Assembly: GCA_965227145.1 (NCBI GenBank)
Contig: OZ245730.1
Coordinates: 3,086,187 to 3,150,186 of the forward strand
Reading direction: 5' to 3'
Length of the DNA: 64,000 nucleotides
From: Calditrichia bacterium
GTDB lineage: Bacteria > Calditrichota > Calditrichia > RBG-13-44-9 > J075
Shown in pieces: positions 17,184-45,699 of the stretch. Numbering within the stretch: position 1 is the first letter of the stretch; every line of letters starts with the position of its first letter. The notes below the pieces were generated by a model. The model did not search any database. It was not told the origin of the DNA and saw nothing but the letters and a program-made list of their open reading frames with translations. A program made the translations under genes and the position numbers.

Positions 17184-18608
17184 TCAATAGGCGCCTTTGC
17201 CGAGGAAAGCCACCGGAATCGTTTCAAACAGGATTTCCATATCAAAGAAAATGGACTGGTTTTCGATATAATAGAGATCCAGCAAACACATTTCCTCGAA
17301 CGAGAGATTACTTCTGCCGGAAATTTGCCACAGTCCGGTGATACCCGGCTTGGTGTTCCCGCGCTTGGCATACCAATCGTAATTCACTTTGCCATTTTTG
17401 ATTTTGTTAAAATCATTGATCGGCAAGGGACGCGGTCCAACGATGCTCATATCCCCTTGTAATACATTAATAAACTGGGGAATTTCATCCAGGCTGTATT
17501 TGCGGAGGAATTTGCCGACCGGCGTTACCCGGGGATCATCCTTCATTTTGAACAATGCGCCGTTGGTTTCGTTATTTGCCCAGATTTTATCTTTCATGTC
17601 ATCAGCATTATCATACATGGTGCGGAATTTATAGAACCAGAATTCCGGGCCGCCTTTATACAGCGAACGTCTTTGTTTGAAAAAAACAGGACCTTTTGAA
17701 GTTAAGCGGATCATCGCTGCAATAATGGCACCGGCCGGAATGAGTAAAATACTGGCAAAAGCCAGAATAATTAAATCGAAGACCCGCTTCAGTCGGGACT
17801 GCCACACCGGCACCCGCAAACGCCGGCTGTCCGTGGATAGCGGCACGCCGGTAACATCTTTTACCTTGATCTGGTTCATCAGTTTTTTAACATCCGGCGA
17901 CACCATTTTAACCGCAACCCCAAAATGTTCGCAGGCTTTGCGGATCGGTTCGTATTTCTTTTCCAGCATGGAATCGCTGACAATAAACACTTTGTCGATG
18001 CCGTGTTCCGGGATAATCGTGTCCACATCGTGGTATTTACCGATAATATACGGCGCAATTTCGGGATGGTGATGGGGCGTGCCGTTGGCGATAAACCCGC
18101 GCAAATCGTAATAATCACCGTATGCATCCGTCAGGATTTCGGTAAAGCGCAGGGCAGACAGATCAGTGCCAACCACCAGTATCCGCTGATTGCCAAATCC
18201 CTTATTAAACAGGCGCAGGTTGATTTTGTGCATCAGGGTGTGCATGACTTCCAGAATGATGTATTGGGACATCAGAAAGATAATTACCACGCCTCGGGAA
18301 AACTCATGTCCCTTGATCAAGAACAGATAGGACATCGTGAGCAGACCGAGGTAGTAGGTCATTATTTTGAGGTGCTGTTTCTGATGCAAAATCGGGCTGC
18401 TGTAAACACTCCGGTAAAGCCCGAGGATAGCGGCCAGCGGGAAAAAGATCAGGTTGACAAATAGCCAGGGCTCAAAATATCTGGCTAAGGGTTCATCCAA
18501 TTCCGGGAAACGAAGATACAGCGCCAGCCGGAAAGCAGCGTTGATCATGATGAAATCGCCAATCATGACGAGCATCGTATAGACGAATCGCCAATTCCGT
18601 TTTAGCAT
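17184..18608 (-). CDS. Initiating polyprenyl-phosphate sugar phosphotransferase (WbaP/CpsE-type bacterial sugar transferase)
   Basis: 474 aa; N-terminal TMs and C-terminal catalytic domain (KRVFDLI, FFKQRR, YKFRTM, RVTPVGKFLRKYSLDEIPQFINVLQGDMSIVGPRP). Confidence 0.9.
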   Translation of the reverse strand: MLKRNWRFVYTMLVMIGDFIMINAAFRLALYLRFPELDEPLARYFEPWLFVNLIFFPLAAILGLYRSVYSSPILHQKQHLKIMTYYLGLLTMSYLFLIKGHEFSRGVVIIFLMSQYIILEVMHTLMHKINLRLFNKGFGNQRILVVGTDLSALRFTEILTDAYGDYYDLRGFIANGTPHHHPEIAPYIIGKYHDVDTIIPEHGIDKVFIVSDSMLEKKYEPIRKACEHFGVAVKMVSPDVKKLMNQIKVKDVTGVPLSTDSRRLRVPVWQSRLKRVFDLIILAFASILLIPAGAIIAAMIRLTSKGPVFFKQRRSLYKGGPEFWFYKFRTMYDNADDMKDKIWANNETNGALFKMKDDPRVTPVGKFLRKYSLDEIPQFINVLQGDMSIVGPRPLPINDFNKIKNGKVNYDWYAKRGNTKPGITGLWQISGRSNLSFEEMCLLDLYYIENQSIFFDMEILFETIPVAFLGKGAY

Positions 18609-21525: not shown

Positions 21526-21750
21526 TTACAATTGTTTCAGGAGACTGTCATAATCGGCGTGGGAACATACCCAGAACCAAGGGATGTAATCCGTTTTTAT
21601 TACACCAACTGCCCGGTAATCCCTGCTTATTCGCACGGAATATACCGGCAGACTTGAATGAATTCTCTTAAATCGGAGTCCGGGATACCAGGGATCTTTA
21701 CGGAATACAGCATAAGCTACTTTTGCCTGTTTTTTTATTTCTGCAGGCAA
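21526..21750 (-). CDS. RelE/ParE-superfamily toxin-like protein (type II TA toxin, putative)
   Basis: 74 aa; VYSVRISRDYRAVGV...IPWFWVCSHADYD resembles the RelE/ParE beta-sheet core; sits just downstream of a small acidic ORF. Confidence 0.5.
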   Translation of the reverse strand: MPAEIKKQAKVAYAVFRKDPWYPGLRFKRIHSSLPVYSVRISRDYRAVGVIKTDYIPWFWVCSHADYDSLLKQL

Positions 21751-21792
21751 ATCATAGTAATTTTTTCAAAAATCGGGATGTTGCCTTTGATC

Positions 21793-22014
21793 TCACAATT
21801 TGTCAATGTCCAGATGGGTCGCATTACCCTGTTCATCTTCTTCCAACGCTTCCAAAGCCAGCTTAGCCAATGCGTCTTCAGATTCAGCAAACTTTTTATC
21901 CCACAGTTTTTCCGAATCAATTTCATCAAGTATCCAACGCGCTAATGCATTTTGTTCGATTTCCGGAAGCCGGGACATTTTTTTAAACGCTTTTTCCAAT
22001 AAACGGGTCATCAT
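21793..22014 (-). CDS. Putative antitoxin partner of the RelE/ParE-like toxin
   Basis: 73 aa, acidic C-terminal half, directly upstream of and co-oriented with the toxin ORF (43-nt gap). Confidence 0.4.
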   Translation of the reverse strand: MMTRLLEKAFKKMSRLPEIEQNALARWILDEIDSEKLWDKKFAESEDALAKLALEALEEDEQGNATHLDIDKL

Positions 22015-22366: not shown

Positions 22367-22470
22367 GACAAGCCTTTTACTTTTTCCCTTCGGCTTCGCT
22401 CAGGACGAGCCTTTTTACTTTTTACTTTTTCCCTTCGGCTTCGCTCAGGACGAGCCTTTTTACTTATTTC
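22357..22470. repeat. ~48-bp direct repeat x2 (CGCTCAGGACRAGCC-TTTTTACT-TTTTCCCTTCGGCTT) just 3' of gmd
   Basis: Direct reading. Confidence 0.7.
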
Positions 22471-23565
22471 ACTGCTTCATCTGTTTTTCAATCTTGGCCA
22501 ACCGGTAATCTGCGACAATCATAATATCGACCAGTTCCCTGAAGGTGGTTTGGGGTTGCCAGCCGAGATGTTTTTTGGCTTTAGCCGGATCACCGATCAG
22601 CAAATCCACCTCGGTGGGACGGTAATAACGCGGGTCAATGGCCACAACCGTTTGCCCGACGCGAAAGGCCGGAGAGCGTTCCAGTCCCGGCAATTTGGGA
22701 TCATCGATATTGGCAATCACCGCATATTCTTCGCTACCGTTGCCCTGCCACTGCAAGGTTACCCCGAAGCCATCAAACGAGGCTTCGATAAATTCCCGAA
22801 CAGAATTGGTCTGTCCGGTTGCCAGCACAAAATCATCCGGTTCGCTTTGCTGGAGCATGCGCCACATACCTTCCACATATTCCGGTGCGTAGCCCCAATC
22901 GCGTTTGGCATCGAGATTTCCCATAAACAATTGTCCTGCTCGCCGATAGCCATCCGGGTAATCGCCCGGGTGATCTTGCGGGTCACAAAAGTTTCCCCGC
23001 GCCGGGGCGATTCGTGGTTAAACAAAATCCCGTTGCAGGCAAAGAGGTTATAGGCTTCGCGATAGTTCACGGTGATCCAGAAGGCATACATTTTGGCAAC
23101 GCCGTAAGGGCTGCGGGGATAAAACGGGGTGCTTTCCGTCTGCGGCACTTCCTGCACTTTGCCGTAAAGCTCCGATGTAGAAGCCTGGTAAAACCGCGCT
23201 TTGATACCGGTTTCTTTAATCGCATCGAGAAAACGCAGCGTGCCGACAGCATCCACTTCCGCAGTATATTCCGGCACCTGGAAAGAAACACCGACGTGAC
23301 TCTGGGCGGCCAGATTATAAATTTCATCCGGCTGCACCTTTTCAAGAATGCGGTTGAGGTTGGAGGAATCGGTCAAGTCCCCGTAATGCAGCACCATTTT
23401 GCGGGGCTGTTCGTGGGGATCCTGGTAAATATGTTCAATACGCTGGGTGTTAAAATTGCTGGCGCGACGGACAATGCCGTGCACCTGATAGCCTTTTTCA
23501 ATCAGCAGTTCAGTTAAATAACTGCCATCCTGACCGGTTATGCCGGTAATGAGTGCCTTTTTCAT
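22469..23565 (-). pseudogene. gmd: GDP-mannose 4,6-dehydratase, reading frame broken by an apparent 1-nt deletion (or sequencing error)
   Basis: Track ORFs 22759..23592 and 22469..22930 are the N- and C-terminal parts of one Gmd ([31 protein letters not shown] / [12 protein letters not shown]). Frames switch at 22925..22936, where GACAATTG would read through as GACAAATTG. Likely start is the second Met (MKKALITG) at 23565. Confidence 0.8.
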
Positions 23566-23718
23566 TGATGCCTCATGATTTTCTTTTGCCATGAATATTC
23601 ACGAATGGTCACGAATATCTGTAATTTTTGTCTTGAAATCAATGCTTGTATGAATTGACAGATGTCAATCATTGTTTGGGTAAATGGGTGTATGGGTAAA
23701 TGAGTGAATGGGTATAAG

Positions 23719-24393: not shown

Positions 24394-25503
24394 TCATTTT
24401 TTTGAAAGTGTCATTTTTTGAAACAACTCGATATACTGATCGGTTATCTTACCCCAGGTGTAGCATTCCGTTATCCTGTTCCGGGAAATCTTTCTTTGGG
24501 CAGAAATTATATTGGGATTTTCTTCAAGGGATTTAATCAAGTCGATTAATGAATCGTCATGCTTGCGAAAATATACGCCATATTTGCCATTGTCCAGCAC
24601 TTCCCGGCTAAAACGGGTATCCAGTGCAATAATCGCACACCCATAAGCCAGGGCTTTTAGCAATGTTGGATTTGTACCACCAAATTCATGCCCGTGAAAA
24701 TAGGCAAAACAATTATGATAGAGTTCAGCCAATTCATCCTGATCGGTTACATAGCCGGTAAAAATCACGCGGGGATCGCTAACCTGTTTTATTTTCTGGG
24801 CATAGTCATCATTATAAGGCACATCACCGACCACGACCAGTTGCTTGTCTGAATTTGATTTTACAAACCGCTCTACAATCACATCCGCATTATTATCCGG
24901 GATCAGGCGACCAACAATTAAATAATACCCTTCTTTTTGTAGTTGCCAGCGTTCGATGAGTTCCGGTTGTTTGGAATGTCGAATATTTGCACCATAGGCA
25001 ATGACGGTTGAATCGGCATTAAATGTCTCTTTATAAATCTTACCCATTTCAACAGAGTCGGTAATAATTTCATTATACAATTTGGTCGCTAATTTGGAAG
25101 CAGTGTAAAAATATTTTGCCCCTAATCCTTGCCATTTGGGGCGCAGCCATTCCAAACCATCCACATTGATTGCGGTTCTTTTACCCAAAATACGGGAAAA
25201 CAAACCAAACGGTCCGTTTGCCGAGTTAACTGCCAGAACAAGGTCATAATCTTTTGTGCAGGCATGTATCATGGATTGGAAAGAATGAACAAACTGGCTG
25301 AGCGTTTTTTTCTCTATAGTGTTAATATAAACAAGGTTCACACCATTGACGGTATCGGGATAAGTGGTAAAAAGGTTCTTGTGACAATAAACCGTTACAT
25401 CAATACCTTTTTTGACCAGCCGCTCACATAGTTCCTTTACAAATGTTTCATAACCGCTATATACGTAAGGATAGCCGCGTGAGCCAATAATCGCGATTTT
25501 CAT
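24394..25503 (-). CDS. Glycosyltransferase, GT-B fold (family 1/4-like)
   Basis: 369 aa; C-terminal [19 protein letters not shown] resembles the GT4 E-x7-E sugar-donor motif. Confidence 0.75.
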
Positions 25504-26219
25504 TCTTTGATTCTTTTCTTAATAAGTTTCGCAGGTATCCCCGCAGCAATAGAGTTTTTTTCGATATTTTTTGTTACGACTGAACCCGCAGCTATAATAC
25601 AGCCATCTTCGATAACAACGCCATCCAGAATAGTGCTGCCGGCACCGATCCAGCAATCATTTCCAATTGTTACACCTTTCCGGCTTTCACCTTGCAGTCG
25701 AACGGGTATCTCCGGATGATCGTAATTATGATTTTCCGAAAAGATTCGAACACCCGGGCCCATAATGACATCATTACCAATGGTTATACCACCTTGCCCC
25801 CCAAGAAAAGATTGGGCGCCGATGGCTGAATTATTGCCAATAGTAATCCCAATTCCCTTATTTGCGATAACGCCACTACAAACCAAACTTGTGTATTTTG
25901 CGACAGTAACATTATTACCAAAACAAATGCCCTCATGAGAGAGGGCATTAATGTGTACAAAATCTTCGATAATCAACCCATTTCCGGCTTGAATCATATA
26001 GGGATGCTCAAAACGGGTATATTTTCCAATAAACACCAATCCTTTTACTTTGCGGAAAAAAAATCGCTTGATTAAGCCACGACATAATTGCATACCACGA
26101 GTGTTAAGAATGCCAAGCAACTCCCGGTTGGTCAGTTTAACTTTAAACCGGTAATCCGGATTTTTTTTTAGGATACTGACAATTTTTTCAATGACTTTCA
26201 GCAGGTGCATTGATACCAA
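25500..26219 (-). CDS. Hexapeptide-repeat (left-handed beta-helix) acetyltransferase, WcaF/serine-acetyltransferase-like
   Basis: 239 aa; repeated [LIV]-G-x-x-x-x hexads ([33 protein letters not shown]...[13 protein letters not shown]). Confidence 0.8.
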
Positions 26220-27318
26220 CCGCTTTCTCGCAACTCCGGATCAAATCCCGGGCAGCTTTCTCCCAGGAAAATTTTGCTGCCTGTTTTAATGACAGTTGCC
26301 GCTTTTGTTCATATAGTTCCGGATCAGTCAACAGTTTATCGATCATATTAGCAATACTTTCGGGGGAATGGGCATCCACATAATTACCGGCATCTCCGCA
26401 AATTTCCGGTATGGAGGATGAGTCTGATACAACTACCGGAATCCCGGAAGCCATTGCTTCCAAAGGGGGAAGCCCAAAACTTTCTTCATATGATGGAAAA
26501 CAAAATACTTTTGCAAGAGAGTAAACTGCCGCTAATTCCTTACCGAAAACCGGGCCAGTAAATATCAAACGGTTTCGAATTCCCAATCTGTCTATGGTAG
26601 ATTCCACTTCACCCATTTTCCAGTCAAAGCCACCAACAATAACCAGGGGAATATTTTGATTTTCAAGTTTGGGAATTGCACTTAATAAATTAAAGATATT
26701 CTTGCGAACATTTAATCTGCCAACATATAACAAAAATTCATCCGGTAATTTATATTTTGACTTAACCGACAAAATTGTTTCAGCGAGCTGTTTGGTTAAC
26801 GGCTTAAAATTTGTGTTAACGCCATGATGAATGACATCTATTTTGGTTTCACTAATGCCATAGTGGTCAGATATACGCTTCTGCTCCGCATATGAAACCG
26901 TATTGATACGATCCGAATGTTTTGCCAAAAATTTTAGCGGCGAGAAATATAATCGCTCTTTCCAGGTGTAATATTCAGGGTGAGTGAGAAATATAATATC
27001 GTGAATATAGGCGATTTGTTTGTAATTTGTAAAAAGTGATGGGAAATTTTGATAAACAAGAACATCAATATTGTGTTCTTTGGCCACCTTAGGCAAGACA
27101 AACAAATTGGAAACCAGATTATTACCTGCCCAGATATTTGCTAATTTGATATTGGGTTTTTGATATGGAAAAGTGTTTTGACGCTCCTTTTCATCAAGAA
27201 AAAAAACAAATTCATGATCTGTATTTGCTTCGGCCAGTTTATTAACCAGGTTTTCAATAACAACTTTACCGCTTGCAGGTCCTTTAAAATACCATTTAGC
27301 ATCTATGCCGATTTTCAT
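26188..27318 (-). CDS. Glycosyltransferase family 4 (GT-B)
   Basis: 376 aa; YVGRL...[29 protein letters not shown]. Confidence 0.85.
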
Positions 27319-28550
27319 ATCGTTTTATTCACTCGAATTGCATCACTCATTATTTGTAGCATTTCTTTACGCCGTAAATTCCATGAAAAATTATCCAAGA
27401 TCCTTACTTTACATGCTTCTGCAAATTGCAATCTTAAATTAGTGTTATGGTATAGTTCTTCCATGCTATTTTTGAGATATTCTATTACCTCTTTTGTATT
27501 TGTTGGCGGTATTTTATATCCTGTGTTTTCGTCAACTTGTAAGGCTGGCCCACCAATATCCAAACATATAACTGGCCTTCCCGCGGCCATTGCCTCGGCA
27601 CAAACCCATCCACCCGAGTCGTGAAAACTTGGATGCACTAATGCATCGCTATCTTTTAAAACACCAAAAACCTCTTCCCGGGAAAGGTTACCCATGAATC
27701 TCGTTTGTTCCTGAATACCAAGTTGGCTAGCCAGATCCTTTAAGTTTTGAAATTCGGGACCTTCTCCAACTATCCAATATTCCGAGTGAATATCACCTGA
27801 TTTTAAGAACTCCGCAAAGGCCTTTAAACCTAAGTGGTAACCTTTCCAATGCAACAATCTGCCAATACTAACAAAGATCAGATTGGGATTTTTGTTGATT
27901 TGGAATTGGTTTAATTTTTCGATGTCTTTTAAAGGCAATGCAACATTTGACATTATTTGTATATTTTTAACACCTGCTTTATGCAATCGTTCTTTGGTCT
28001 GTTCGGATGTTGCTAGAGCTATTGTAGCCCGTTTTACGGTTAATTTCCAAAGTATATCGAATTGAACAAGAGATCTTACGATATCTCTTTTATGCTCAAA
28101 AATTTTTCCATTTAGATCTAATGACTTGTATAAGCTTTTTGGCGCTGATTCACCACCACCTACCGGTCCCCAGATAAATGGAATGGGTAACAAACATAGT
28201 AAGCTTGGTAACCAATATGAGCCAAATGTTGCATGTTGAATTACATCGAAATTAATTTTATTATTAATTTTTTTTATCTTGAAATAAATAGCTATCTGCC
28301 ATAAATAATAATAAACTCTTGCACCACGAGAACCTTTTTTCCAAAATCTTAGGTAGTATGGTAAATCATAGTATATCCAATGTGTATTTTGCGGTAAAGA
28401 TTGGTTCTTAGTAACAGGTATGCTATTATTTTCCCTGGTTATAACCCATATCTCATTCTCAATTGATAATTGTTCGACCCAGTTCCAACCGATACCTGCT
28501 TCAGAGCCTTTACCGGGTTCACATGCGTAAGCGGATACTAATATTTTCAA
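27315..28550 (-). CDS. Glycosyltransferase family 4 (GT-B)
   Basis: 411 aa; SIGRLLHWKG, HPSFHDSGGWVCAEAMAAGRPVICLDIGG. Confidence 0.8.
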   Translation of the reverse strand: MKILVSAYACEPGKGSEAGIGWNWVEQLSIENEIWVITRENNSIPVTKNQSLPQNTHWIYYDLPYYLRFWKKGSRGARVYYYLWQIAIYFKIKKINNKINFDVIQHATFGSYWLPSLLCLLPIPFIWGPVGGGESAPKSLYKSLDLNGKIFEHKRDIVRSLVQFDILWKLTVKRATIALATSEQTKERLHKAGVKNIQIMSNVALPLKDIEKLNQFQINKNPNLIFVSIGRLLHWKGYHLGLKAFAEFLKSGDIHSEYWIVGEGPEFQNLKDLASQLGIQEQTRFMGNLSREEVFGVLKDSDALVHPSFHDSGGWVCAEAMAAGRPVICLDIGGPALQVDENTGYKIPPTNTKEVIEYLKNSMEELYHNTNLRLQFAEACKVRILDNFSWNLRRKEMLQIMSDAIRVNKTI

Positions 28551-28555
28551 TACTT

Positions 28556-30418
28556 TTAATTGTTAACTTTTTCCAGACCCGTGTTTTTTAAAATTGTATG
28601 CTCAATTATAAATAAATTCAACAGATAGCTAAAGGTTTTCATGTTTTCACTAAAAATGGATCTATCATTTTCATAAATACATATATGATATATTAAATAT
28701 AAACCATAAACACCATGGATAATTCTATCAATGATTTCTAAATCTATATTCAGTTTTAATAGATAAGTTTCATAAATTTTATACCAACCTATCTTTTCTG
28801 TTAATTCTTTGTGTACTTGATATTTGGAAGTTTTCCGGATCAGTATCATAACTTGGGTATAATAGCGTATAACATCAAAACCAGCAGGTGCAGAATCAAT
28901 TGCATATTCAAAGTCAAAAACACCAACTTTCGGTTTTGTATTATACATATTCCATGGTGTAAAATCACCATGAGAAAAGTGAAAAGGTAATTGTATAGAT
29001 AAAACTTTTTTAATGATTATCTCTAATGAATCTTCACAAAGGTGTTTTAAATACGGTGTTTTAATATGGTTAACCATTTTTTGTAATTCTAAGAAAAAAT
29101 CAGATTCCACCAATACCATTGCACTGTAATTTATTTTTGAAAAATCTTTTACGACATTTAAGAATTCTTCTTTTTCTAATATCATTGATTTATGCGATAT
29201 TTTTTTAGAATCAAGGGCACTTGTAACAAGACAATATTTAACTTTCCATCTCCCTTCATATAAAACTTCCGGTATATCAATCGCATGAAACTTATGAGAA
29301 TTTAAATTTTTTAAAATATTTGCTTCAGTTTTTAGACCTTCAATGGCGGCTTCTTTATTGGCAATTTTGGCAAATGCTATTATACTTCCATTTAAATCCA
29401 TTAAACAAAATACTATCTTACGTTTAGGACCAGGTGCGCCTAAAGATATTGAAAAATTTATTACATTAAGTTCTGGAAATAAACTATTAATAAAACGCAG
29501 GAAAGAGCTTAGCTGTGTCTGGTCAATATGTATTTTATTAAAAATATATTTTGCAAAACCACACTTAAATGATAATTGAATAAAATTTTTTAATAATCGT
29601 GCTTTTTTTGAGGCTGGAGAGTAAAGAGATAAACTATTAGTTATAGATCGTCTAAACTTATAGTTAACAATAAATCCGCGACCATCATTAAATTTTATTA
29701 ATACAAGTTCAGGATATGACTGCCTTTCATGATATGCATTGAAGAAACTTTGTACCCATAATTCTGGATTATAATCTGTTTTTGAATCGATATAATTATT
29801 AAACTTGCTAAGAATTAGTGTCTTTATTTCATTTGCAATTGCATAGGGAGCTCTATTTATTCGGATTAGATATTCAATTTCTCCTAACCTATGTAATTTA
29901 ATCCAACTTAATTGATGTTGGGTAAGAATTTTAACAGGTAATTCAGGTTTACGTCTATAAATATATTCTGGTTCATCATATAATAGTATGCTAATATCTG
30001 CCTTTTGAGCAACCTTTGGATATAGTTTAGTTATAAATATCTTTTTTAAACCAAATCTTTCTGGATTAACCAAAATATCTAAATAAGACCTATCATAAAA
30101 AACAAGATCAGATGAATTACAAATATTACTTTTAGAAAAAAACCGATCAATAGCATAGTCTATTAAATAATATATCTGTCTCGCAAATTGAAATTTGCCA
30201 TGCTCCTGTCTTGGTATTATTATAGAATCATTAATTTTGATATTTTGGGGTTGACGATGAGCTATTTTATGAAGAGGTGGTAAATACCCCGGACGCCAAA
30301 ACCTTCTTTCTAAATTAACATTGTCAAGTTGATTTATAAGAAAATCAAGAGTTGTAGATTTTCCAACACCATCAGGTCCATGAAGAGATATAGTAATTCT
30401 ATTAGATTTAGATTTCAA
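28556..30418 (-). CDS. Two-domain protein: N-terminal P-loop (nucleoside/nucleotide-kinase-like) plus C-terminal APH/choline-kinase-like phosphotransferase
   Basis: 620 aa; Walker A HGPDGVGKST near N-terminus; C-terminal HGDFTPWN (Brenner-type catalytic loop) and DFEYA (metal-binding D-x-E). Confidence 0.55.
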   Translation of the reverse strand: MKSKSNRITISLHGPDGVGKSTTLDFLINQLDNVNLERRFWRPGYLPPLHKIAHRQPQNIKINDSIIIPRQEHGKFQFARQIYYLIDYAIDRFFSKSNICNSSDLVFYDRSYLDILVNPERFGLKKIFITKLYPKVAQKADISILLYDEPEYIYRRKPELPVKILTQHQLSWIKLHRLGEIEYLIRINRAPYAIANEIKTLILSKFNNYIDSKTDYNPELWVQSFFNAYHERQSYPELVLIKFNDGRGFIVNYKFRRSITNSLSLYSPASKKARLLKNFIQLSFKCGFAKYIFNKIHIDQTQLSSFLRFINSLFPELNVINFSISLGAPGPKRKIVFCLMDLNGSIIAFAKIANKEAAIEGLKTEANILKNLNSHKFHAIDIPEVLYEGRWKVKYCLVTSALDSKKISHKSMILEKEEFLNVVKDFSKINYSAMVLVESDFFLELQKMVNHIKTPYLKHLCEDSLEIIIKKVLSIQLPFHFSHGDFTPWNMYNTKPKVGVFDFEYAIDSAPAGFDVIRYYTQVMILIRKTSKYQVHKELTEKIGWYKIYETYLLKLNIDLEIIDRIIHGVYGLYLIYHICIYENDRSIFSENMKTFSYLLNLFIIEHTILKNTGLEKVNN

Positions 30419-31662
30419 TTCTCTTTTGAATTTACCATTTTAAAAATATTAACAATTTCATCATTTAACTGTGATTCAAGTATTGTTAGTTCAGGATTGT
30501 TTATGGAGCTTATAACTTCGCTATTAAATTGTAAATTGCAACAATAACTATTTTTAATGCATTCATTAATTTTAACTTGCTCTTCTTGCAGTATAATATT
30601 AATTACTGCATCAGGGTTAGGTAAGAAAATTAAAAAAACATTCATAAGCTTTAATATTAATAAAGCTATCAAACTATTTTTTTTTTCTTGCAAAAAATTC
30701 GCTTGATAATAAATGACAAGCTGTTGTCGGCTTTTCATTAATTTTGTTTTAAAAAGCACCTCAACCAGATCCTTTATTATATTATCTAATATATTAAAGA
30801 AACTCATCCCCTTTGACATATAACGATAAAGGTTTCTTTGTACACAGTAATCCTTATTTATTTTATGTACTGGTAAGTGAAAAAACATTGGCAAGTCGAT
30901 ATTATTAATCTGTTTTACTAAATGAATTAAAAAAGCATTATTATTACAATTTAGGAGTATCAATGGCCCACACGGTGAAGTAAATACTAATGCCTTTTTT
31001 TTGATCCACCCAACTAAATTTTTAATAGCATTTCCAGGATGAGAAAAAATATAGTGTAATATTAAATCTCTTTTTAAATTTTTTAATCCTATTAATTTTT
31101 CTAATTGCGTTATTTCAAGATAGTAAAAAAATTGAACTACCGTTTTTGAATTAAGCTTTTTAGATAATATTTGTTTTCCAGCTTGAATAAACTCAAATAT
31201 CTTTTCTTCATTTTGAATATTATATAGTAACTTCCTCTCATTATTGGCTAAAACAGGTAACAATACTTTTCTAACAAATGGAAGCCAAAGTTTACTTTCG
31301 ATTTGTTTATCTTCTGAATTAAAAAAATCATTAAAATCAATAAAACCCCATGAAATATTTTTTAAGCTATGAAATTCGAGATATTGCCATTTCCCATTGA
31401 TTTTTTTTATTCCTATTATTCTTTTACCCCAAATGGGAGGAGGATGAATCGCATAAAATTCATTTTTGTGGAATTCTTTTTTAACCAGTTCTAATGCGAA
31501 TTCAACATCATTAAATATTACAACATCTATATCCCTACCAACCATCCTTGGAAATTTTTCTAATCCACTTACGACAGTAAAGAAAATATTGTAATTGTTA
31601 AATTGAGTTATAATAGATTGTATTATTGCAACTTTAAGTTTGTTGACATCAAGCAACATCAA
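30415..31662 (-). CDS. Hypothetical protein; N-terminal segment weakly nucleotidyltransferase/LicD-like (GRDIDVVIF)
   Basis: 415 aa, co-directional, start overlaps upstream stop; only a short D-I-D-V motif supports a family. Confidence 0.4.
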   Translation of the reverse strand: MMLLDVNKLKVAIIQSIITQFNNYNIFFTVVSGLEKFPRMVGRDIDVVIFNDVEFALELVKKEFHKNEFYAIHPPPIWGKRIIGIKKINGKWQYLEFHSLKNISWGFIDFNDFFNSEDKQIESKLWLPFVRKVLLPVLANNERKLLYNIQNEEKIFEFIQAGKQILSKKLNSKTVVQFFYYLEITQLEKLIGLKNLKRDLILHYIFSHPGNAIKNLVGWIKKKALVFTSPCGPLILLNCNNNAFLIHLVKQINNIDLPMFFHLPVHKINKDYCVQRNLYRYMSKGMSFFNILDNIIKDLVEVLFKTKLMKSRQQLVIYYQANFLQEKKNSLIALLILKLMNVFLIFLPNPDAVINIILQEEQVKINECIKNSYCCNLQFNSEVISSINNPELTILESQLNDEIVNIFKMVNSKEN

Positions 31663-32334
31663 TTAATCCGATTTAAGTTTTGCTACACAAATCATTGTAT
31701 CACCAAATCTAGGCATGGTTCGAAAGAACCACTTTAACGCACTATTGGCAATTTTATTGGAATTCGTTTCAAATATTTCATTACTAGTATACCAATTTGA
31801 AACTGTAAGATCAAACCGATTGAATAATGTTTTAATAAGGGAAAATGTAAACCCCAAAGTGTGGTCCGGATGAATTCTTTGATTTGATTTTAAATTATGA
31901 AGAAACAACTTTAGACTCAACAAATTAGGTGTAGTAATAATCAATTTAGTATTTTTATTCATATATTTTTTTACTGATTGTAAAAACAGGCCTGGATTAT
32001 ATAGATGTTCGATTAATTCACCTGCAATTATTACATCAAAATTAACTTTATTTGAATCGAAAGTAAGGTTTTCAACATTATCTACATAAAGATTGGCAAC
32101 ATTATATTTTTCTTTTAAATAATCTAAAACTTCTTGGCTTAAATCCACACCATAAAGTAAGTTAGATTGTTCCATTAACCTCAGATGCAAATACCTACCT
32201 ATTATCTCATTATCTTTATAATGAATGGCATCTGCACACCCTAAATGTAGTACATTTTTATCTTTACAACTATCTACTAAAAACTGGTTTCTATCCTCAA
32301 TAAATTTGATTGAAGGAAATTGGTTTTTTCCCAT
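31663..32334 (-). CDS. Class I SAM-dependent methyltransferase
   Basis: 223 aa; motif I VLHLGCADA, acidic motif YGVDLS, motif III-like DVIIAGELIEHL. Confidence 0.8.
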   Translation of the reverse strand: MGKNQFPSIKFIEDRNQFLVDSCKDKNVLHLGCADAIHYKDNEIIGRYLHLRLMEQSNLLYGVDLSQEVLDYLKEKYNVANLYVDNVENLTFDSNKVNFDVIIAGELIEHLYNPGLFLQSVKKYMNKNTKLIITTPNLLSLKLFLHNLKSNQRIHPDHTLGFTFSLIKTLFNRFDLTVSNWYTSNEIFETNSNKIANSALKWFFRTMPRFGDTMICVAKLKSD

Positions 32335-33512: not shown

Positions 33513-34301
33513 TCACGAATAAACAATTTTTATATATTTTCTATATATTAATAAGGTTGAACATAATATTCTATAGATTTTAAGACCAAACTCATTATTC
33601 ATTAACTTTATACTTGAGTATCTATTAAATACTTTAAAACCTTCTTTATATCTTATTTCACGAACATTTGGCACATCTAAAGACTTGTTTGAATTATGCC
33701 ATCTGAAAATGGCAAAGAAATCATTTACATATTTTAATTTATATCCAGAATATAAAATATGAGCAAAAAACTCTTTATCCATTGTTAGTTTAAAATTCTT
33801 ATCAATTAGTATGCCTGAATCAATAATTTCTTTTCTAAAGAAGAAAGTTGTAGAAGGGATATAGCAATGATAAAGTGAAAGCCATTTAATAGGTATGTGC
33901 GAATATACTTTTTGTACCTTCTTATTTGATTGAAAAAGCAAATAAAAATTTGAATAAAATGCATCAACATTCGGGTTATCAATAAAATACTTGCTAATTT
34001 TATGAAATGTTTTAGTGCAGTATTGATCGTCAGCGTTAAGCCATCCGATTATTTCACCTGTTGCTAAATGGAATCCTTTATTTAAAGCATCACTTTGACC
34101 TTCATCTTTTTCTGAAATCCATTTCAAATGCGGATACTCTTTAACTATTGAAAGTGTATCATCTGTTGATTCTCCATCAACAATTATATGTTCAAAATTG
34201 TTATAATTTTGATCTATTACACTATTTATGCAATCTTTTAAATATTTTGCACTATTGTATGATGGAGTAATAATAGATATTTTAGGATATTTTTCTGACA
34301 T
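33513..34301 (-). CDS. Glycosyltransferase family 2
   Basis: 262 aa; ISIITPSYNSAKYL, IVDGESTDDT, GWLNADD (DxD-type). Confidence 0.85.
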   Translation of the reverse strand: MSEKYPKISIITPSYNSAKYLKDCINSVIDQNYNNFEHIIVDGESTDDTLSIVKEYPHLKWISEKDEGQSDALNKGFHLATGEIIGWLNADDQYCTKTFHKISKYFIDNPNVDAFYSNFYLLFQSNKKVQKVYSHIPIKWLSLYHCYIPSTTFFFRKEIIDSGILIDKNFKLTMDKEFFAHILYSGYKLKYVNDFFAIFRWHNSNKSLDVPNVREIRYKEGFKVFNRYSSIKLMNNEFGLKIYRILCSTLLIYRKYIKIVYS

Positions 34302-35544
34302 TTGATATACGTTTATTTGTGGAAAAATTAAGTATCAACGAAAATGAAATAAAAATCCAGCTTACAACATCGGCCCCATAACCAATCATATACATAATCA
34401 AGGCTATAGTAGATAGAAAACTTAGTCTATAAACAAATTTATCATTTGGGTCAATATTTTTCATTCTAATTTTAATGTACGATTTATATAAGAAACTAGA
34501 TACAAATAAAATTACTAAAGAAATCCCCAAATATCCCAAATAGTATAGTGTTTGAATAAAACCGTTATGAGCTCCTGCCATCGCCTGATCACCAATTAGT
34601 TTTGCATGCACAATGAATCGAGCTCCTAACCCATTTCCCATAAATGTTGCATTATCAATTACAGCATTCCAAATCAACATTCTCCACGAGCCTGTTGCGT
34701 CAGCGTCAAAATCGGTAAATGCAGTTAATCTCTGCTGTATAAATGCAATATCAATCTGTATAAAAAAACCCACAATGAATCCAACAACTGCCACGAGGAA
34801 CATATATTTATAATTTTGAACCCAAAGAAAAATTATGGGCACTGTTGCAAAAAGAATTGCCCAAACAGTGCGATGACTTGTATATGGAATCATAATCACA
34901 AAAATAGGTAACAGAAACAGCGGCAATCTATAACTTTTATCAATAAATTGGTAGTAAAGTAATCCAGATAAGAAGCCCAAAGTAATAGTTTCATACGTCA
35001 ACGCACCAAATTGGCGATTTGCCACACTTAGCGAATAATTATTTGTCAGGACTAAATTAAGAGGTGCTAGAATTATTAATGGCATAAGGTAAGTACTTAG
35101 ACCCTTAATTAATTCCAATACTTCTCTTTTTCTGACATTAGTTGAAATATATATCATGATAATAATATAATAAAAAACTGAACGAAATTCAGCAATACTC
35201 GCATATCCAAATTTAACTCCACCCATAAAAACAGATACAAATACAAAACCAAAAAATAGTCTCACGATATCGTTTTTAAAAAACAATGGAGAGTTTCGGG
35301 TTTTACTTATTTTTTGATGAATAATAAAAACCACCATCAATAACAAAGCAATGTCTGTTGGTTGTGTTCGAATAGGCGTAAGAGTTAATGATGTTATTCC
35401 ATTTTCCCATGAGTTTCTTTCAATAAAAAACATAAATAGAGTGAATATTAAAATAAACTCATTTCTGGTCTTTGCCTTATACAAGAAGTAGATAGAATAT
35501 AAAATAATAATATATAATAGTGCTGGATGACCTGATATATACAT
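34282..35544 (-). CDS. Polytopic membrane protein, O-antigen polymerase/ligase (Wzy-like) candidate
   Basis: 420 aa with about 10 hydrophobic helices and a larger loop near the C-terminal third; position within the GT cluster. Confidence 0.5.
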   Translation of the reverse strand: MYISGHPALLYIIILYSIYFLYKAKTRNEFILIFTLFMFFIERNSWENGITSLTLTPIRTQPTDIALLLMVVFIIHQKISKTRNSPLFFKNDIVRLFFGFVFVSVFMGGVKFGYASIAEFRSVFYYIIIMIYISTNVRKREVLELIKGLSTYLMPLIILAPLNLVLTNNYSLSVANRQFGALTYETITLGFLSGLLYYQFIDKSYRLPLFLLPIFVIMIPYTSHRTVWAILFATVPIIFLWVQNYKYMFLVAVVGFIVGFFIQIDIAFIQQRLTAFTDFDADATGSWRMLIWNAVIDNATFMGNGLGARFIVHAKLIGDQAMAGAHNGFIQTLYYLGYLGISLVILFVSSFLYKSYIKIRMKNIDPNDKFVYRLSFLSTIALIMYMIGYGADVVSWIFISFSLILNFSTNKRISNVRKIS

Positions 35545-39148: not shown

Positions 39149-39874
39149 CTAAATAGTCCCTGAATCAACAAATATATTTTGACCGGTTATTGAACTAGCT
39201 TTTTCTGACAGAAGAAACTCAACCGTATTCGCTACAGAATTTAGTGAGGTAGGTGTTTTTAGTGAATTTCTATTATAAATTCTGTTTCTTTGACCATCAT
39301 CCAATTTTTGGCTCATTGAAGTTTCCATGAATCCTGCAACGATACAATTTGATCTTATCCCTTTACTTCCCCATTCCCTAGAAGTATTTTTTGAAAAGGC
39401 CTCCAATGCACCTTTTGTTGAAGCATACATTGCAAGCCCTTTATAACCTGTATGCACACTTATAGAAGAAATGTTCACAATACTACCTTGTATTTGATGA
39501 AGCAACATATTTCTAATAACATATTTGGTGATTAGCATTGGCGTAAAAACATTAACCTGAAACATCTCATGCAAAGGTTTTATATCAATATTTGTTACAA
39601 TGTCATCATAAGCAATTGCTGCATTGTTTACAAAGCCATGCAAAGGAATATCATAATTAATGAAACCCTTTGTTAGTAAGTTTTTACAACCTTGAGTATC
39701 TAATAAATCAAATGACTTGATATAAATTTTACTTTCATAACTATTCATTAATAATTTTAAATCATTAGAAATTGTTCTGCATAAGCCATGTACAGTATAC
39801 CCTTTTTCAAGTAAAACTTGAGCAATTTCCAATCCAAGCCCTTTGGATATACCAGTTAATAAAATATTCTTCAT
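39149..39874 (-). CDS. Short-chain dehydrogenase/reductase (FabG-like)
   Basis: 241 aa; TGISKGLG glycine motif, NNAA, catalytic S...YxxxK (SSISVHTGYKGLAMYASTK). Confidence 0.85.
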   Translation of the reverse strand: MKNILLTGISKGLGLEIAQVLLEKGYTVHGLCRTISNDLKLLMNSYESKIYIKSFDLLDTQGCKNLLTKGFINYDIPLHGFVNNAAIAYDDIVTNIDIKPLHEMFQVNVFTPMLITKYVIRNMLLHQIQGSIVNISSISVHTGYKGLAMYASTKGALEAFSKNTSREWGSKGIRSNCIVAGFMETSMSQKLDDGQRNRIYNRNSLKTPTSLNSVANTVEFLLSEKASSITGQNIFVDSGTI

Positions 39875-41103
39875 TATCTTTTTATTTTTCCGGTTCTTGT
39901 TGCTTCAATTGAATCGACAATATTTATTATTCTAGGGATTTTAAAATTTTGTATCTTTTTGTTAAGAAAATCTTTCAAAGTTTTTTCGGAAATATCTTTT
40001 TTTATAACTATATCAGCACATAAGACATTTCCAATTACAGAATTTTTTTTTGCAAAGACTCTGGAAATTTTAATATTAGGATGCGAATTAATAACGGATT
40101 CTATTTCCAGAGGATTTACTTTATAACCACCAACATTTATTAACTCATTTTTTCTACCAACAAATCGAAAAACTAAAGGATCGTTTTCTACAATCTCTAC
40201 TATATCACCTGTATTATACCAATTATCATTCAACTCTATAGAGTTAGTATATCCCAATAACTTGTTATTAATGAACAACTCATTATCAACTATTTTCACC
40301 ATTTTTTTTAAGGCATCTTTTATTTGAAACAGATCGCCATTTGCTGCAAGTACAGTACCTGCCTCAGTTGAAGCATAAACATTCAGTATTTTAGCATTTG
40401 GAAAAATTGTAAGCAAACTTTCAGTAAATTTGTTATCAAATTTTTCCCCTCCAGAAGTTATACGCTTGACAGAATTATAAGGCTTTTCAATCGGAAGCAA
40501 CATTCGAAAAAAAGTTGGTGTTGCAGAAATATTAGTAATATGAAATTGCTCAATAAGTTCATAAATCTTAGAACGTGATTGACCAAATAAAGTAATTATT
40601 GAATTATTATTTAGCAGAGCCTGAAAGAAGACTTGTAATCCAGCAATATGTGTTGGATTGTATGAAAAACCCCAAATATCCGACTCCATTTTTGAAGATT
40701 TTTTTACCATTCGAGTTACGTTTTGAAACGTATGACTTACCCTCTTTGGAAGCCCTGTTGTTCCTGAGGTATATAATGTGATTCTCCATTTAGAAGTATT
40801 ATTAAATGAAGTAATCATTTGAGGAGGTGTTAACTCATTTATATTTTTTAAGTCATAACCAGAGGTTAGCTCTTCCTTTGTAATTCCTAGATTCTCAATT
40901 TCGATATTTGAAAAGTCATAGTCCAGTAAAATTATTGGACAATCGTGTATTAATGAGCAAACAATGTTTTTAAATATATTATAATAATCATTTGTATAAA
41001 CATAGCGATTTAAATACCTTAATTGTATTATATCATTAAATAAATCATCATAAGTATAGCTTTTGTTTGAAAAGCTGTCCCAAAAAAACAATTTTTTATG
41101 CAT
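39874..41103 (-). CDS. Adenylate-forming enzyme (ANL superfamily), likely acyl-ACP/CoA ligase
   Basis: 409 aa; AMP-binding motif TLYTSGTTGLPKRV, later GYTNS/YNTGD. Confidence 0.8.
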   Translation of the reverse strand: MHKKLFFWDSFSNKSYTYDDLFNDIIQLRYLNRYVYTNDYYNIFKNIVCSLIHDCPIILLDYDFSNIEIENLGITKEELTSGYDLKNINELTPPQMITSFNNTSKWRITLYTSGTTGLPKRVSHTFQNVTRMVKKSSKMESDIWGFSYNPTHIAGLQVFFQALLNNNSIITLFGQSRSKIYELIEQFHITNISATPTFFRMLLPIEKPYNSVKRITSGGEKFDNKFTESLLTIFPNAKILNVYASTEAGTVLAANGDLFQIKDALKKMVKIVDNELFINNKLLGYTNSIELNDNWYNTGDIVEIVENDPLVFRFVGRKNELINVGGYKVNPLEIESVINSHPNIKISRVFAKKNSVIGNVLCADIVIKKDISEKTLKDFLNKKIQNFKIPRIINIVDSIEATRTGKIKR

Positions 41104-41326
41104 TATCTAAATCTAACTTTTTGAATATTTCACCTAAAGTTGATACCAAACCATCTTCAAATACATCTATACCAAATTCTTTTTCAATTCGAACAGTAAA
41201 TTCAGCTAGATCTAGTGAATCAAATCCAATATCCTTTCGTAAATCCATGGAGAGATTTAATTCGTTAAATTCAGTTAAATCCTTATTATATCTCATAATG
41301 TTAATAATTTCCAATATTTTTTCCAT
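41096..41326 (-). CDS. Acyl carrier protein
   Basis: 76 aa; phosphopantetheine-attachment motif GFDSLDLAEF. Confidence 0.8.
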   Translation of the reverse strand: MEKILEIINIMRYNKDLTEFNELNLSMDLRKDIGFDSLDLAEFTVRIEKEFGIDVFEDGLVSTLGEIFKKLDLDNA

Positions 41327-41327
41327 A

Positions 41328-41978
41328 TTAAAATCTCATTTCCTTAGCTGGGTTACCAAATACTTTTTTAGGCTTGAGTATGGATTGTGTTACAACTGAT
41401 CCTACCCCAATAAAACAATCGTTGACAATTTTGGTTTCAATGTTAATCGTAGAACTATTACTAATATATACTCTATCTCCGACATTCGATCTGGCACCAA
41501 TAACTACACCAGCACCAAGTAAGCATGAATTACTTATTGTAACATCGTGTCCTAAAATAGAGCCATAGAATATGTTGTTAAAATTACCGATTTTGACGTT
41601 AGACCCAAACAGTACATTCTCATATATTATATTCCCAATACCTATCTCAGAAAAAGTTATATCTGTTTTTGGATGAATAAGATTTGGTAGGTTTGTAATA
41701 TTGTATTCGTTTTTTATGCGTTTTATAATAGATTCATGATGTTGGGTTGATTGAAAAACTGTATTAACAACAGCGCATTTCTTATATTTTGACTTAAGTA
41801 ATTCATCTCCTCCAATGATAGGTACACCAAAGATATCTTTACCTATACATTCTTTATCCTTTTCTAAAAAACCGATAATATTGTAAGTTTTTTTTTGCTC
41901 ATTAATTGCTTTTATCAACTTTATTATATCTGAGTCTCCAGCACCGATAATCACTAAATCTTGCATCATGTCCTTCAA
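41328..41978 (-). CDS. NeuD/PglB-family hexapeptide acyltransferase (sugar N-acyltransferase)
   Basis: 216 aa; N-terminal Rossmann-like VIIGAGDS, then hexapeptide repeats (IGNFNNIFYGSILGHDVTISNSCLLGAGVVIGARSNVGDRVYI). Confidence 0.8.
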   Translation of the reverse strand: MKDMMQDLVIIGAGDSDIIKLIKAINEQKKTYNIIGFLEKDKECIGKDIFGVPIIGGDELLKSKYKKCAVVNTVFQSTQHHESIIKRIKNEYNITNLPNLIHPKTDITFSEIGIGNIIYENVLFGSNVKIGNFNNIFYGSILGHDVTISNSCLLGAGVVIGARSNVGDRVYISNSSTINIETKIVNDCFIGVGSVVTQSILKPKKVFGNPAKEMRF

Positions 41979-42904
41979 TCAGTAAAAAAATCGTTAATTT
42001 TAAACTTATCTGTATTATCTGTAAAAACTAGTATAGTACCATCAGTAGTTTTAACGATGATCCCACCATCACTAAAGACTTCACAAACTGTGCCTGCTTT
42101 ATAAGTAGGGAAGAAATTCTTTTCAAAAGGAATACCTTTAAATACCTTTACAACTTTCCCATTAATATAAGTATGTGCAAGTGGATATGGTTTTTCTAAA
42201 GCACGAATCAAATTATAGATATGTTCAGTATTAAACTTTTGCCAAAGGATTTGCCCATCTTCAATTGACCTTTTTCGGAGATATATAATATTTTCTTTAA
42301 CTTTCTGACTATTAAAAGTTAAAGTGTTGTTAGATATTTCTTGAAACAAATTTTGTATAAATTCTTTTGCAACAATACTGATTTTTTTGTATAAACTAGA
42401 ATTATTATCAAATTTTGATATTTCAATTTTTTTATGGTACACTATTGGACCATTGTCTACTTCAGGCGATACCTTAAACAAATAAAAATTATATTCTTTA
42501 TATCCCCCAGCAATTGACCATATCACAGGTGATCTACCCCTGCCATCAGGTAATTCAAAAGGCGATCCATGAAATCCAAAACAACCTTTTTTAAAAAAAC
42601 TGAGAATGTTGTTTGGTATTAACCTGTTCCATCCAATTACTAATCCTATATCTGGTTCACAGTTCTTAATATAGTCTAAATCACTTTTCGATTTTAGATT
42701 ATATTTGTCTGCAAAAAATATTTCGTCTGTCGGAGCATTAACAATATTCTCATAATACTCACCAAGACCGATTTTATCTGCTTTTTCTTTCGAAATTGTA
42801 ACCAATGTAGATTTATTAAGATACATTAAATCAATATTCAATAAAATATCATATGCAGGCTGATTAACTCCAAAAAAAATCGTATTATAACCTTTATCTT
42901 TCAT
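41975..42904 (-). CDS. Formyltransferase-family protein (sugar N-formyltransferase candidate) with C-terminal extension
   Basis: 309 aa; GFHGSPFELPDGRGRSPVIWSIAGG resembles the formyl_trans_N catalytic loop. Confidence 0.6.
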   Translation of the reverse strand: MKDKGYNTIFFGVNQPAYDILLNIDLMYLNKSTLVTISKEKADKIGLGEYYENIVNAPTDEIFFADKYNLKSKSDLDYIKNCEPDIGLVIGWNRLIPNNILSFFKKGCFGFHGSPFELPDGRGRSPVIWSIAGGYKEYNFYLFKVSPEVDNGPIVYHKKIEISKFDNNSSLYKKISIVAKEFIQNLFQEISNNTLTFNSQKVKENIIYLRKRSIEDGQILWQKFNTEHIYNLIRALEKPYPLAHTYINGKVVKVFKGIPFEKNFFPTYKAGTVCEVFSDGGIIVKTTDGTILVFTDNTDKFKINDFFTD

Positions 42905-43571
42905 ATGATCTTACCAAATTGAATCCTTCTGCGAAATTTAATCCAGATTCCCCACCTCTTACAACTGCTAGAGCTCTTATATATTCCTTACTTCGCGGAT
43001 GAGGTGGTTGTTTCAGTTCTGTTTCATAATATTTAATTAATTCAATTTTATCTTCTATATAATTTTCGATATTAATATAATAATTAAATTTGAAATTTTT
43101 ACTTGCGCTAAATGCAGCGTCTGATGAAGATGGTATTTCATAAGCAAATATAGAATTAATATAAGTCGAATAATATGGCTTTGTCGACATTTCAACAAGT
43201 TCATATGCTATTTTATGTTCATGATTGAAGTCCCAAGGTGAAGGGGTAAAAATAATATTCGGCTGTATTTTATCTAAAACAGATATTAATTTTTCCTGTA
43301 GATTATTTAAAGGGATTGTATCCAATTGGTTATCTTTATAGTCCCATTTTATAACATTACTGATATTAAGCTTACCAGCAACTTGGTTAATAGCATTATC
43401 TCTTGAATTTATCGCATATTCCGACCATTTTGGCTGCCAAATTGAAGTCAAGATCAACCAGTATAGTTCGTTAACCTCTGGATTAGATGCCAGTTTTACT
43501 AAACTACCCCCCATTCCAAAACATTCATCATCAGCATGAGCAGATATTATTAGTATTTTTCGTTTTTTCAA
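42894..43571 (-). CDS. PIG-L/LmbE-family N-acetylglucosaminyl deacetylase
   Basis: 225 aa; LIISAHADDECFGMGG (zinc-binding AHxDDE motif). Confidence 0.85.
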   Translation of the reverse strand: MKKRKILIISAHADDECFGMGGSLVKLASNPEVNELYWLILTSIWQPKWSEYAINSRDNAINQVAGKLNISNVIKWDYKDNQLDTIPLNNLQEKLISVLDKIQPNIIFTPSPWDFNHEHKIAYELVEMSTKPYYSTYINSIFAYEIPSSSDAAFSASKNFKFNYYINIENYIEDKIELIKYYETELKQPPHPRSKEYIRALAVVRGGESGLNFAEGFNLVRSYER

Positions 43572-44698: not shown

Positions 44699-44707
44699 AT
44701 TCGTTTC

Positions 44708-45694: not shown

Positions 45695-45699
45695 TAATC

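Follow-up and report, generated by a model that had tools for sequence, protein, structure and literature searches.

A two-kinase protein as part of a four-part module in bacterial Wzx/Wzy polysaccharide loci

A stretch of 64,000 nucleotides (nt) from the genome of a Calditrichia bacterium (contig OZ245730.1, positions 3,086,187 to 3,150,186; hereafter the window) carries, within a surface-polysaccharide locus, a gene whose single product has a P-loop kinase at its N-terminus and a kinase of the aminoglycoside phosphotransferase (APH)/choline-kinase type at its C-terminus. What would such a double kinase do in a polysaccharide locus, and does it work with its neighbors? An earlier note, made from the DNA letters, had offered two answers: that the protein, with an adjacent 'D-I-D-V' motif protein and a methyltransferase, installs a phospho or methyl substituent on the glycan, or that it is an unrelated inserted module. 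On the basis of the current results, a nucleotidyltransferase (NT), the P-loop kinase, the APH-like kinase and a dedicated glycosyltransferase (GT) of family GT4 form a four-part module of Wzx/Wzy polysaccharide loci that occurs in many phyla. The folds and glycan kinases as such were already known; it is the combination of four parts that is new to the databases and literature searched, where it found no match in Pfam, NCBIfam or published work, Pfam having no model for the architecture. A phospho or methyl substituent, as first proposed, is a plausible candidate for the product of the module.

It is important to establish first that the 620-amino-acid (aa) protein is real. All motifs quoted in the earlier note are present in its open reading frame (ORF). 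The first domain contains the Walker A sequence GPDGVGKS (nt 30356..30379), WRPG, DRSYLD and an RRKPE lid, whereas the second contains the catalytic loop HGDFTPWN (nt 28949..28972) and, within DFEYA, the DFE motif (nt 28907..28915), and carries a family-specific N-terminal extension (DGRG, LxLY..KAR). A homology search of 5.8 billion proteins returned 54 relatives, the best of which span 96-98% of the ORF. When 32 relatives with 22-44% identity to the query were aligned, the invariant positions were G14, D16, G17, G19, K20, R110, D114, R156 and K157 in the P-loop domain and K351, E365, G484, D485, N490, D502 and E504 in the APH-like domain, in which H483 was also kept in at least 90% of sequences. 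They are precisely the catalytic residues of the two kinase types. The AlphaFold2 (AF2) prediction had a pLDDT of 88.9 and a pTM of 0.90, and the latter indicates, for the modeled structure, a defined packing of the P-loop domain against the APH-like domain. Judged from its sequence, the ORF encodes a single, genuine bifunctional protein in which both kinase active sites are intact and the kinases apparently active. The possibility that an error of sequencing or assembly fused two genes, which the earlier note had raised, has nothing beyond the unusual architecture and a shorter public gene call to recommend it; the same one-frame P-loop plus APH arrangement is found in dozens of independent assemblies, the pTM of 0.90 also weighs against it, and we regard an artefact as ruled out for practical purposes. 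It should be noted that the public call for the same genome (P0001, 505 aa) takes residue 116 as its start and lacks Walker A together with half the P-loop domain, and that source names are mostly absent for the relatives, the few named ones being 'hypothetical protein' or 'thymidylate kinase'. The gene starts with TTG at 30418, has AAAGAG 5' of the TTG and shares a 4-nt overlap (AATTGAAA) with the upstream gene, which ends in TGA; its translation is probably coupled to that of the upstream gene.

With regard to family assignment, Pfam recognized APH (PF01636) in the 620-aa protein at 24.2 bits against a gathering threshold of 23.2 (aa 455-517), and in the relatives P0004, P0009, P0035 and P0040 at 25.8-33 bits. 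This domain has the bilobal fold of the APH/protein-kinase (PK)-like superfamily and the APH catalytic set (beta3 Lys, alphaC Glu, HxDxxxxN loop and the metal-binding Asp of DxE). At the N-terminus, Pfam gave generic P-loop matches only, and generic Walker A matches also dominated a profile search of PDB sequences, which left the substrate site uninformed. A PDB sequence search gave a weak alignment of aa 8-51 with Pseudomonas thymidylate kinase, in which GPDGVGKST falls opposite GPEGAGKST and WRPG opposite TREPGG, and domain 1 has the fold, the P-loop GxD/EGxGKS/T, the DR motif and the basic lid of thymidylate kinases. The domain hidden Markov models, the AF2 model and the invariant catalytic residues all bear out the two kinase types first proposed, and by fold and motifs the protein can be placed in the APH/PK-like superfamily and the thymidylate-kinase fold group.

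On the other hand, it is not an orthologue of WbdD, LicA or the housekeeping thymidylate kinase (Tmk). No match to PF02223 or TIGR00041 was obtained for the 620-aa protein in Pfam and NCBIfam; relatives pass PF02223 (31.9-37.1 bits versus 27) but fall short of TIGR00041 (27.5-28.8 versus 83.25). Choline kinase (PF01633) gave no match for the 620-aa protein and 14.8-15.6 bits in relatives, against a cut-off of 29. Because the curated cut-offs are missed, LicA, APH(3') or Tmk function is not implied. Besides lying far under the equivalog cut-off, domain 1 differs from Tmk in a family-specific insertion (PRRxPGRFxxxRLxYYxxDF) and in being always tied to NT and APH domains and to polysaccharide loci. 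Unlike the LicA system, the module has a thymidylate-kinase-like domain in the place of LicC; Pfam and locus comparison found neither a LicD protein (PF04991) nor a cytidylyltransferase of the LicC type in it. These results also bear on the idea that the genes are unrelated cargo, either a housekeeping dTMP kinase feeding dTDP-sugar synthesis or an inserted ANT/APH-type antibiotic-resistance cassette. In addition to the TIGR00041 shortfall, APH(3') scored 14 bits against 205, and the module is associated with its GT4 and with Wzy loci rather than with rml genes or mobile elements; cargo of either kind is highly improbable. The alternative of an unrelated inserted module was rejected, since relatives lie inside Wzx/Wzy polysaccharide loci in many phyla.

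The upstream D-I-D-V protein (415 aa) consists of two domains. Its first domain (aa 1 to ~228) has a Pol-beta-type NT fold with the paired metal-binding carboxylates of that superfamily (DxD, D44/D46, nt 31525..31533), and its C-terminal domain has a vestigial P-loop-kinase fold in which Walker A is replaced by LLNCNNNAF and the DR motif by YY. Relatives of ~830 aa have an extra N-terminal ~220 residues that share the motif hGxE..P...GRD(I/L)D with this partner, and hhalign aligned the partner to columns 3-364 of the family profile, that is, to its N-terminal plus P-loop domains (99.5% probability, E 3.4e-22). At the level of sequence profiles, the partner is the missing N-terminal part of the kinase family. 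The earlier suggestion that it works with the kinase is strongly supported, as the same N-terminal domain is fused to the kinases in many organisms; neither the Pol-beta NT fold with its dead P-loop domain, nor the GT4 as the most conserved partner, nor the thousands of relatives sharing the architecture had been recognized in the earlier note. The NT domain matches the ANT(2'') structure 4xje. Other searches were less productive: the 415-aa protein had no Pfam match, a single-sequence homology search returned only the protein itself (the kinship being seen by profile comparison), and an NT-domain profile run against the 5.8-billion-protein set recovered family fragments only, with no annotated relatives. 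PF14907 (NTP_transf_5) did not match the partner's NT domain, and among the 29 NT domains of the family just 2 gave any match, both sub-threshold (best E 7e-4; 15.8-17.8 bits versus 31.2).

A recent tandem duplication was considered as the origin of the dead P-loop domain and rejected: the two P-loop-fold domains of the window show no pairwise similarity, and the vestigial one is also present in three loci of the closest clade (L089, L090 and L091). Some Acidobacteriota loci have two tandem NT plus P-loop genes, one without Walker A, or two tandem copies of the dedicated GT4 gene (L058 5769..8663; L043 11336..13248), and duplication followed by domain decay seems to be recurrent in this family.

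The module was then followed across genomes. More than 357 relatives were obtained from a scan of one genome per species, and a HMMER search of 1.84 billion cluster representatives (50% identity) yielded 5,041 proteins with a cut-off of E<=1e-30, a number that rose to 10,979 when the cut-off was E<=1e-10. The phyla include Acidobacteriota, Bacteroidota (including gut and rumen Bacteroidaceae and Prevotella), Planctomycetota, Calditrichota and others, and cultured carriers are available (Hymenobacter mucosus DSM 28041, Chryseobacterium spp., Neolewinella aurantiaca and Acidiluteibacter ferrifornacis). All examined loci belonged to the Wzx/Wzy class, combining Wzy and GTs with an initiator of the Bac_transf or WecA-like type. 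Among ~82 non-redundant loci, four arrangements of the domains could be distinguished. In the first, NT, P-loop and APH domains form one protein of ~830 aa (P0004, P0009, P0016); in the second, NT plus P-loop (~430-530 aa) is separate from APH (~400-430 aa), as in 29 loci mainly from Acidobacteriota and Bacteroidaceae; the third is a permuted APH-NT-P-loop protein of ~770-900 aa in Bacteroidota (P0035, P0047); and the fourth is that of the window, in which a gene for NT plus a dead P-loop domain is followed by one for P-loop plus APH. This last order also occurs in L089, L090 and L091, two of which have an even shorter vestigial P-loop domain. In the window, L089 and L091, the NT and kinase genes share an overlap of 4-8 nt, and in L090 they are separated by a GT4 gene.

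The fourth part, the dedicated GT4, is by far the commonest partner. When ORFs were clustered over these ~82 loci, it formed the largest neighbor cluster (53 loci). Its C-terminal domain is a PF00534 domain with a donor-binding motif of the Ex7E type; the N-terminal domain is distinctive (SAYACEPxKGSExGxGWNW, RFWKKGxRG, WGPVGGGES), the profile matches BshA, MshA and PimB structures at E 1e-19 to 1e-26, and E319 is invariant. Orthologues 32-47% identical adjoin the kinase module in distant phyla, and fusions join it to the kinases in P0040 and to the following GT4 in one neighbor cluster (c33).

By comparison, the methyltransferase has a narrower association. Its proposed link to the kinase holds in the closest clade, where homologues 52-62% identical lie at the same position, directly upstream of the NT gene (L089, L090, L091), and fails for the family as a whole. 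As a core part of the module it was rejected, tblastn having found it in just 2 other loci, far from the module; sequence comparison thus confines its conservation to the closest clade. This distribution is relevant to a further explanation, modeled on WbdD of Escherichia coli O9a, which phosphorylates and then methylates the glycan terminus (PMC3482155). A kinase and a methyltransferase would here cap the non-reducing end with a methyl phosphate and set the chain length. Likeness exists insofar as WbdD is a glycan kinase of protein-kinase-like fold that works with an S-adenosylmethionine (SAM)-dependent methyltransferase in O-polysaccharide synthesis, and a PK-like-fold kinase near such a methyltransferase is kept in the closest clade. 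However, WbdD unites kinase, methyltransferase and a C-terminal coiled-coil in one polypeptide and caps chain ends in an ABC-transporter (Wzm/Wzt) pathway, whereas the window locus is Wzx/Wzy-dependent and contains no Wzm/Wzt transporter. Moreover, the methyltransferase is a separate gene that is missing from most loci of the family, and a terminator would leave the P-loop and NT domains, which like the GT4 belong to the core of the module, without a role. We consider a WbdD-like terminator improbable.

What, then, could the four parts do together? The reading that we favor, to which we would give an even chance, is that the module adds a phosphate-based decoration (phosphodiester or diphosphate) to the lipid-linked repeat unit, on the sugar installed by the dedicated GT4. 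At the cytoplasmic face, the GT4 would add the acceptor sugar, and the APH-like domain would phosphorylate a hydroxyl on this sugar or on a small head-group alcohol to give a phosphomonoester. The domain resembling nucleoside monophosphate (NMP) kinases would act on this phosphomonoester to give a diphosphate, or else on a second site, and the NT-fold domain, through its DxD metal site, would cap or transfer at the phosphate, yielding a phosphodiester or a nucleotidyl or glycosyl phosphate. In the clade of the window, a subsequent methylation of the sugar or the phosphate may be due to the adjoining methyltransferase. Evidence for this reading is that both kinase sites are intact, that the metal site of the NT fold is conserved, that NT, P-loop and APH domains are fused, permuted or encoded by overlapping genes, that they are paired with the GT4 and that they reside in polysaccharide loci. 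A glycan-bound substrate is suggested by P0054, in which a CE4 polysaccharide deacetylase is fused to P-loop plus APH.

Several points weigh against a phosphate-based decoration. Every chemical step is read from folds and gene context, the NT domain lies below every Pfam threshold, and the polysaccharide structure is known for no organism that carries the module. NMP-kinase-fold domains usually act on free nucleotides, and the invariant P-loop Asp (GxDGxGKS) is a thymidylate-kinase hallmark, which makes a nucleotide substrate possible. Finally, the DxD of the NT domain has been lost in the homologue of a sister strain (P0002), and NT catalysis may for that reason be dispensable.

The nucleotide-site motifs and the GT4 pairing could alternatively point to donor synthesis, that is, a salvage (Leloir-type) route to a private nucleoside diphosphate (NDP)-sugar for the dedicated GT4. 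The APH-like domain would then be an anomeric sugar-1-kinase like NahK, AmgK or Mak, the NT would convert sugar-1-phosphate and NTP to NDP-sugar, and the thymidylate-kinase-like domain would supply or recycle the nucleotide. The tightest partner is indeed a Leloir-type GT4 with a canonical donor-binding C-domain, kinase-GT4 fusions exist, the P-loop domain keeps its thymidylate-kinase-like nucleotide-site motifs, and no other donor-synthesis gene is consistently linked to the GT4. APH-fold anomeric kinases also pair with nucleotidyltransferases elsewhere (AmgK/MurU, NahK). However, the NT fold is of the wrong type: to our knowledge, Pol-beta-fold enzymes use hydroxyls or phosphates of pre-formed molecules and not sugar-1-phosphates, and the nucleotidyltransferases of sugar-1-phosphates have other folds. 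The route would also require a free cytoplasmic pool of the sugar, a private dTMP kinase would have no obvious role because GTs release NDP and not NMP, and the CE4 fusion suits glycan-level chemistry better. Donor synthesis appears unlikely on these grounds, though it deserves more weight than the other alternatives.

If a phosphate-based decoration is indeed the product, how does it compare with known chemistry? Phosphate decorations are known to be made from NDP-activated head groups or by single glycan kinases (WaaP, WbdD). In the lipopolysaccharide core, the gene for WaaG (a GT4) adjoins that for WaaP, a PK-like heptose kinase that phosphorylates the growing lipid-linked glycan, and a eukaryotic parallel is offered by POMK with FKTN/FKRP. 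WaaG/WaaP thus sets a precedent for the pairing of a GT4 with a glycan kinase, as WbdD (PMC3482155) does for phosphorylation with methylation as the next step. WaaP differs in being a single domain and in acting on core heptose, not on the repeat unit of an O-antigen, capsule or exopolysaccharide; no WaaP-type match was obtained in NCBIfam. The closest precedent for the proposed logic of the module is the PsmK/PsmN pair of the pseudomycoidin lasso-peptide cluster, in which a P-loop kinase (PsmK) installs one or more phosphates and an uncharacterized ANT(2'')-like nucleotidyltransferase with an essential DxD (PsmN) is required for placing a hexose onto the phosphate (PMC6993621). The likeness consists in a P-loop kinase paired with a Pol-beta-fold NT, the match to ANT(2'') (4xje) included; the NT of the module is likened to PsmN by fold, and homology is unproven. 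In contrast to the module, PsmK/PsmN acts on a peptide Ser and not a glycan, PsmK is HPr-kinase-like and not thymidylate-kinase-like, and neither an APH-like domain nor a GT4 partner is present. In addition, a thymidylate kinase and a PF14907 nucleotidyltransferase flank the phosphoenolpyruvate mutase in a phosphonate gene neighborhood (PMC8942020), which hints, by analogy, that such a pair deals with phosph(on)ate groups bound for the cell surface.

A broader and more tentative proposal, which we put forward as possible but on balance doubtful, is that the module represents a widespread route in which phosphorylation comes first, so that phosphodiester-, diphosphate- or nucleotide/glycosyl-phosphate-linked substituents are built directly on lipid-linked surface glycans. 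The APH-like kinase would make the sugar phosphate, the NMP-kinase-like domain would extend or activate it, and the PsmN-like NT-fold domain would couple the further group. If true, this would replace the canonical logic of CDP- or NDP-activated head groups seen in LicC/LicD and TagD/TagF. In capsules, O-antigens and exopolysaccharides, decorations that contain phosphate alter charge, metal binding and antigenicity as well as recognition by phage and complement. The module could reveal a new way to make phosphodiester-linked glycan substituents, testing is made feasible by the cultured carriers, and its chemistry, once known, would allow annotation of thousands of genes that currently bear the label 'hypothetical' or 'thymidylate kinase'.

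The features of the window locus are listed in Table 1. From ~27000 to ~49500, an interval that contains the variable portion of the Wzx/Wzy locus, GC content is 27-30%, versus 44-50% in the flanks, whose proteins are at least 90% identical to those of other Calditrichia metagenome-assembled genomes. The contig of a sister strain (L001) has these flanks in common (at least 90% identical), and its locus is syntenic but divergent in gene set; its kinase gene is of the fused type (P0002, 44% identical). These findings suggest a hypervariable, serotype-type surface-polysaccharide island, probably exchanged horizontally. The block of three genes downstream of the module (24394..27318) recurs after the module in the Calditrichia locus L001, in L089 and L091 and in Bacteroidota loci.

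Table 1. Coordinates of the module and of other features of the polysaccharide locus in the window
Feature	Position	Strand	Details
Two-kinase gene	28556..30418	-	620 aa, uninterrupted ORF; homologue coverage 96-98%; AF2 model
Domain 1, thymidylate-kinase-fold P-loop kinase	29783..30418	-	aa 1 to ~212
Domain 2, APH/choline-kinase-fold kinase	28559..29782	-	aa ~213 to 620
Partner gene ('D-I-D-V' protein)	30415..31662	-	415 aa; start probably ATG at 31659
Dedicated GT4 glycosyltransferase	27315..28550	-	411 aa; PF00534, 110.2 bits
SAM-dependent methyltransferase	31663..32334	-	223 aa; PF13847/PF08241
GT4, downstream block	26188..27318	-	Pfam, NCBIfam
Hexapeptide acyltransferase, downstream block	25500..26219	-	Pfam, NCBIfam
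DUF1972/Cps2T-like GT, downstream block	24394..25503	-	Pfam, NCBIfam
Wzi	15366..16982		
Bac_transf initiator	17184..18608		
Wzy	34282..35544		
Wzx	46408..47916		

Some other features of the window were observed. Genes at 39149..43571 (minus strand) encode a short-chain dehydrogenase/reductase, a truncated AMP-binding (acyl-adenylate) enzyme, a hexapeptide transferase, a formyltransferase-like protein and a PIG-L deacetylase, and adjoin genes for an aminotransferase, a 4,6-dehydratase and an NTP-transferase (43568..46398); together they suggest a repeat unit with an N-acylated or N-formylated amino-dideoxy sugar. The GDP-mannose 4,6-dehydratase gene is split (22469..23592, minus strand) into two overlapping ORFs in different frames, 22759..23592 covering positions 1-211 of the 332 in the Pfam profile and 22469..22930 covering 213-332, which points to a pseudogene with a frameshift or else to an error in sequencing. 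Inside the polysaccharide locus, a ParE-like toxin gene (74 aa, PF24732, E 4e-12) and an adjoining 73-aa ORF, possibly its antitoxin (21526..22014, minus strand), lie between the genes for the epimerase and the dehydratase. A right-handed beta-helix (NosD/Beta_helix) protein is encoded at the locus edge (47942..49486, minus strand), and such proteins recur in 9 related loci (cluster c21; for example, L038 12660..14318); they may be a polysaccharide-modifying enzyme, a lyase or an epimerase. Just outside the locus, in the flank common to other Calditrichia, is a gene for a NamZ-type exo-beta-N-acetylmuramidase (PF07075/PF20732; 9832..11016, minus strand).
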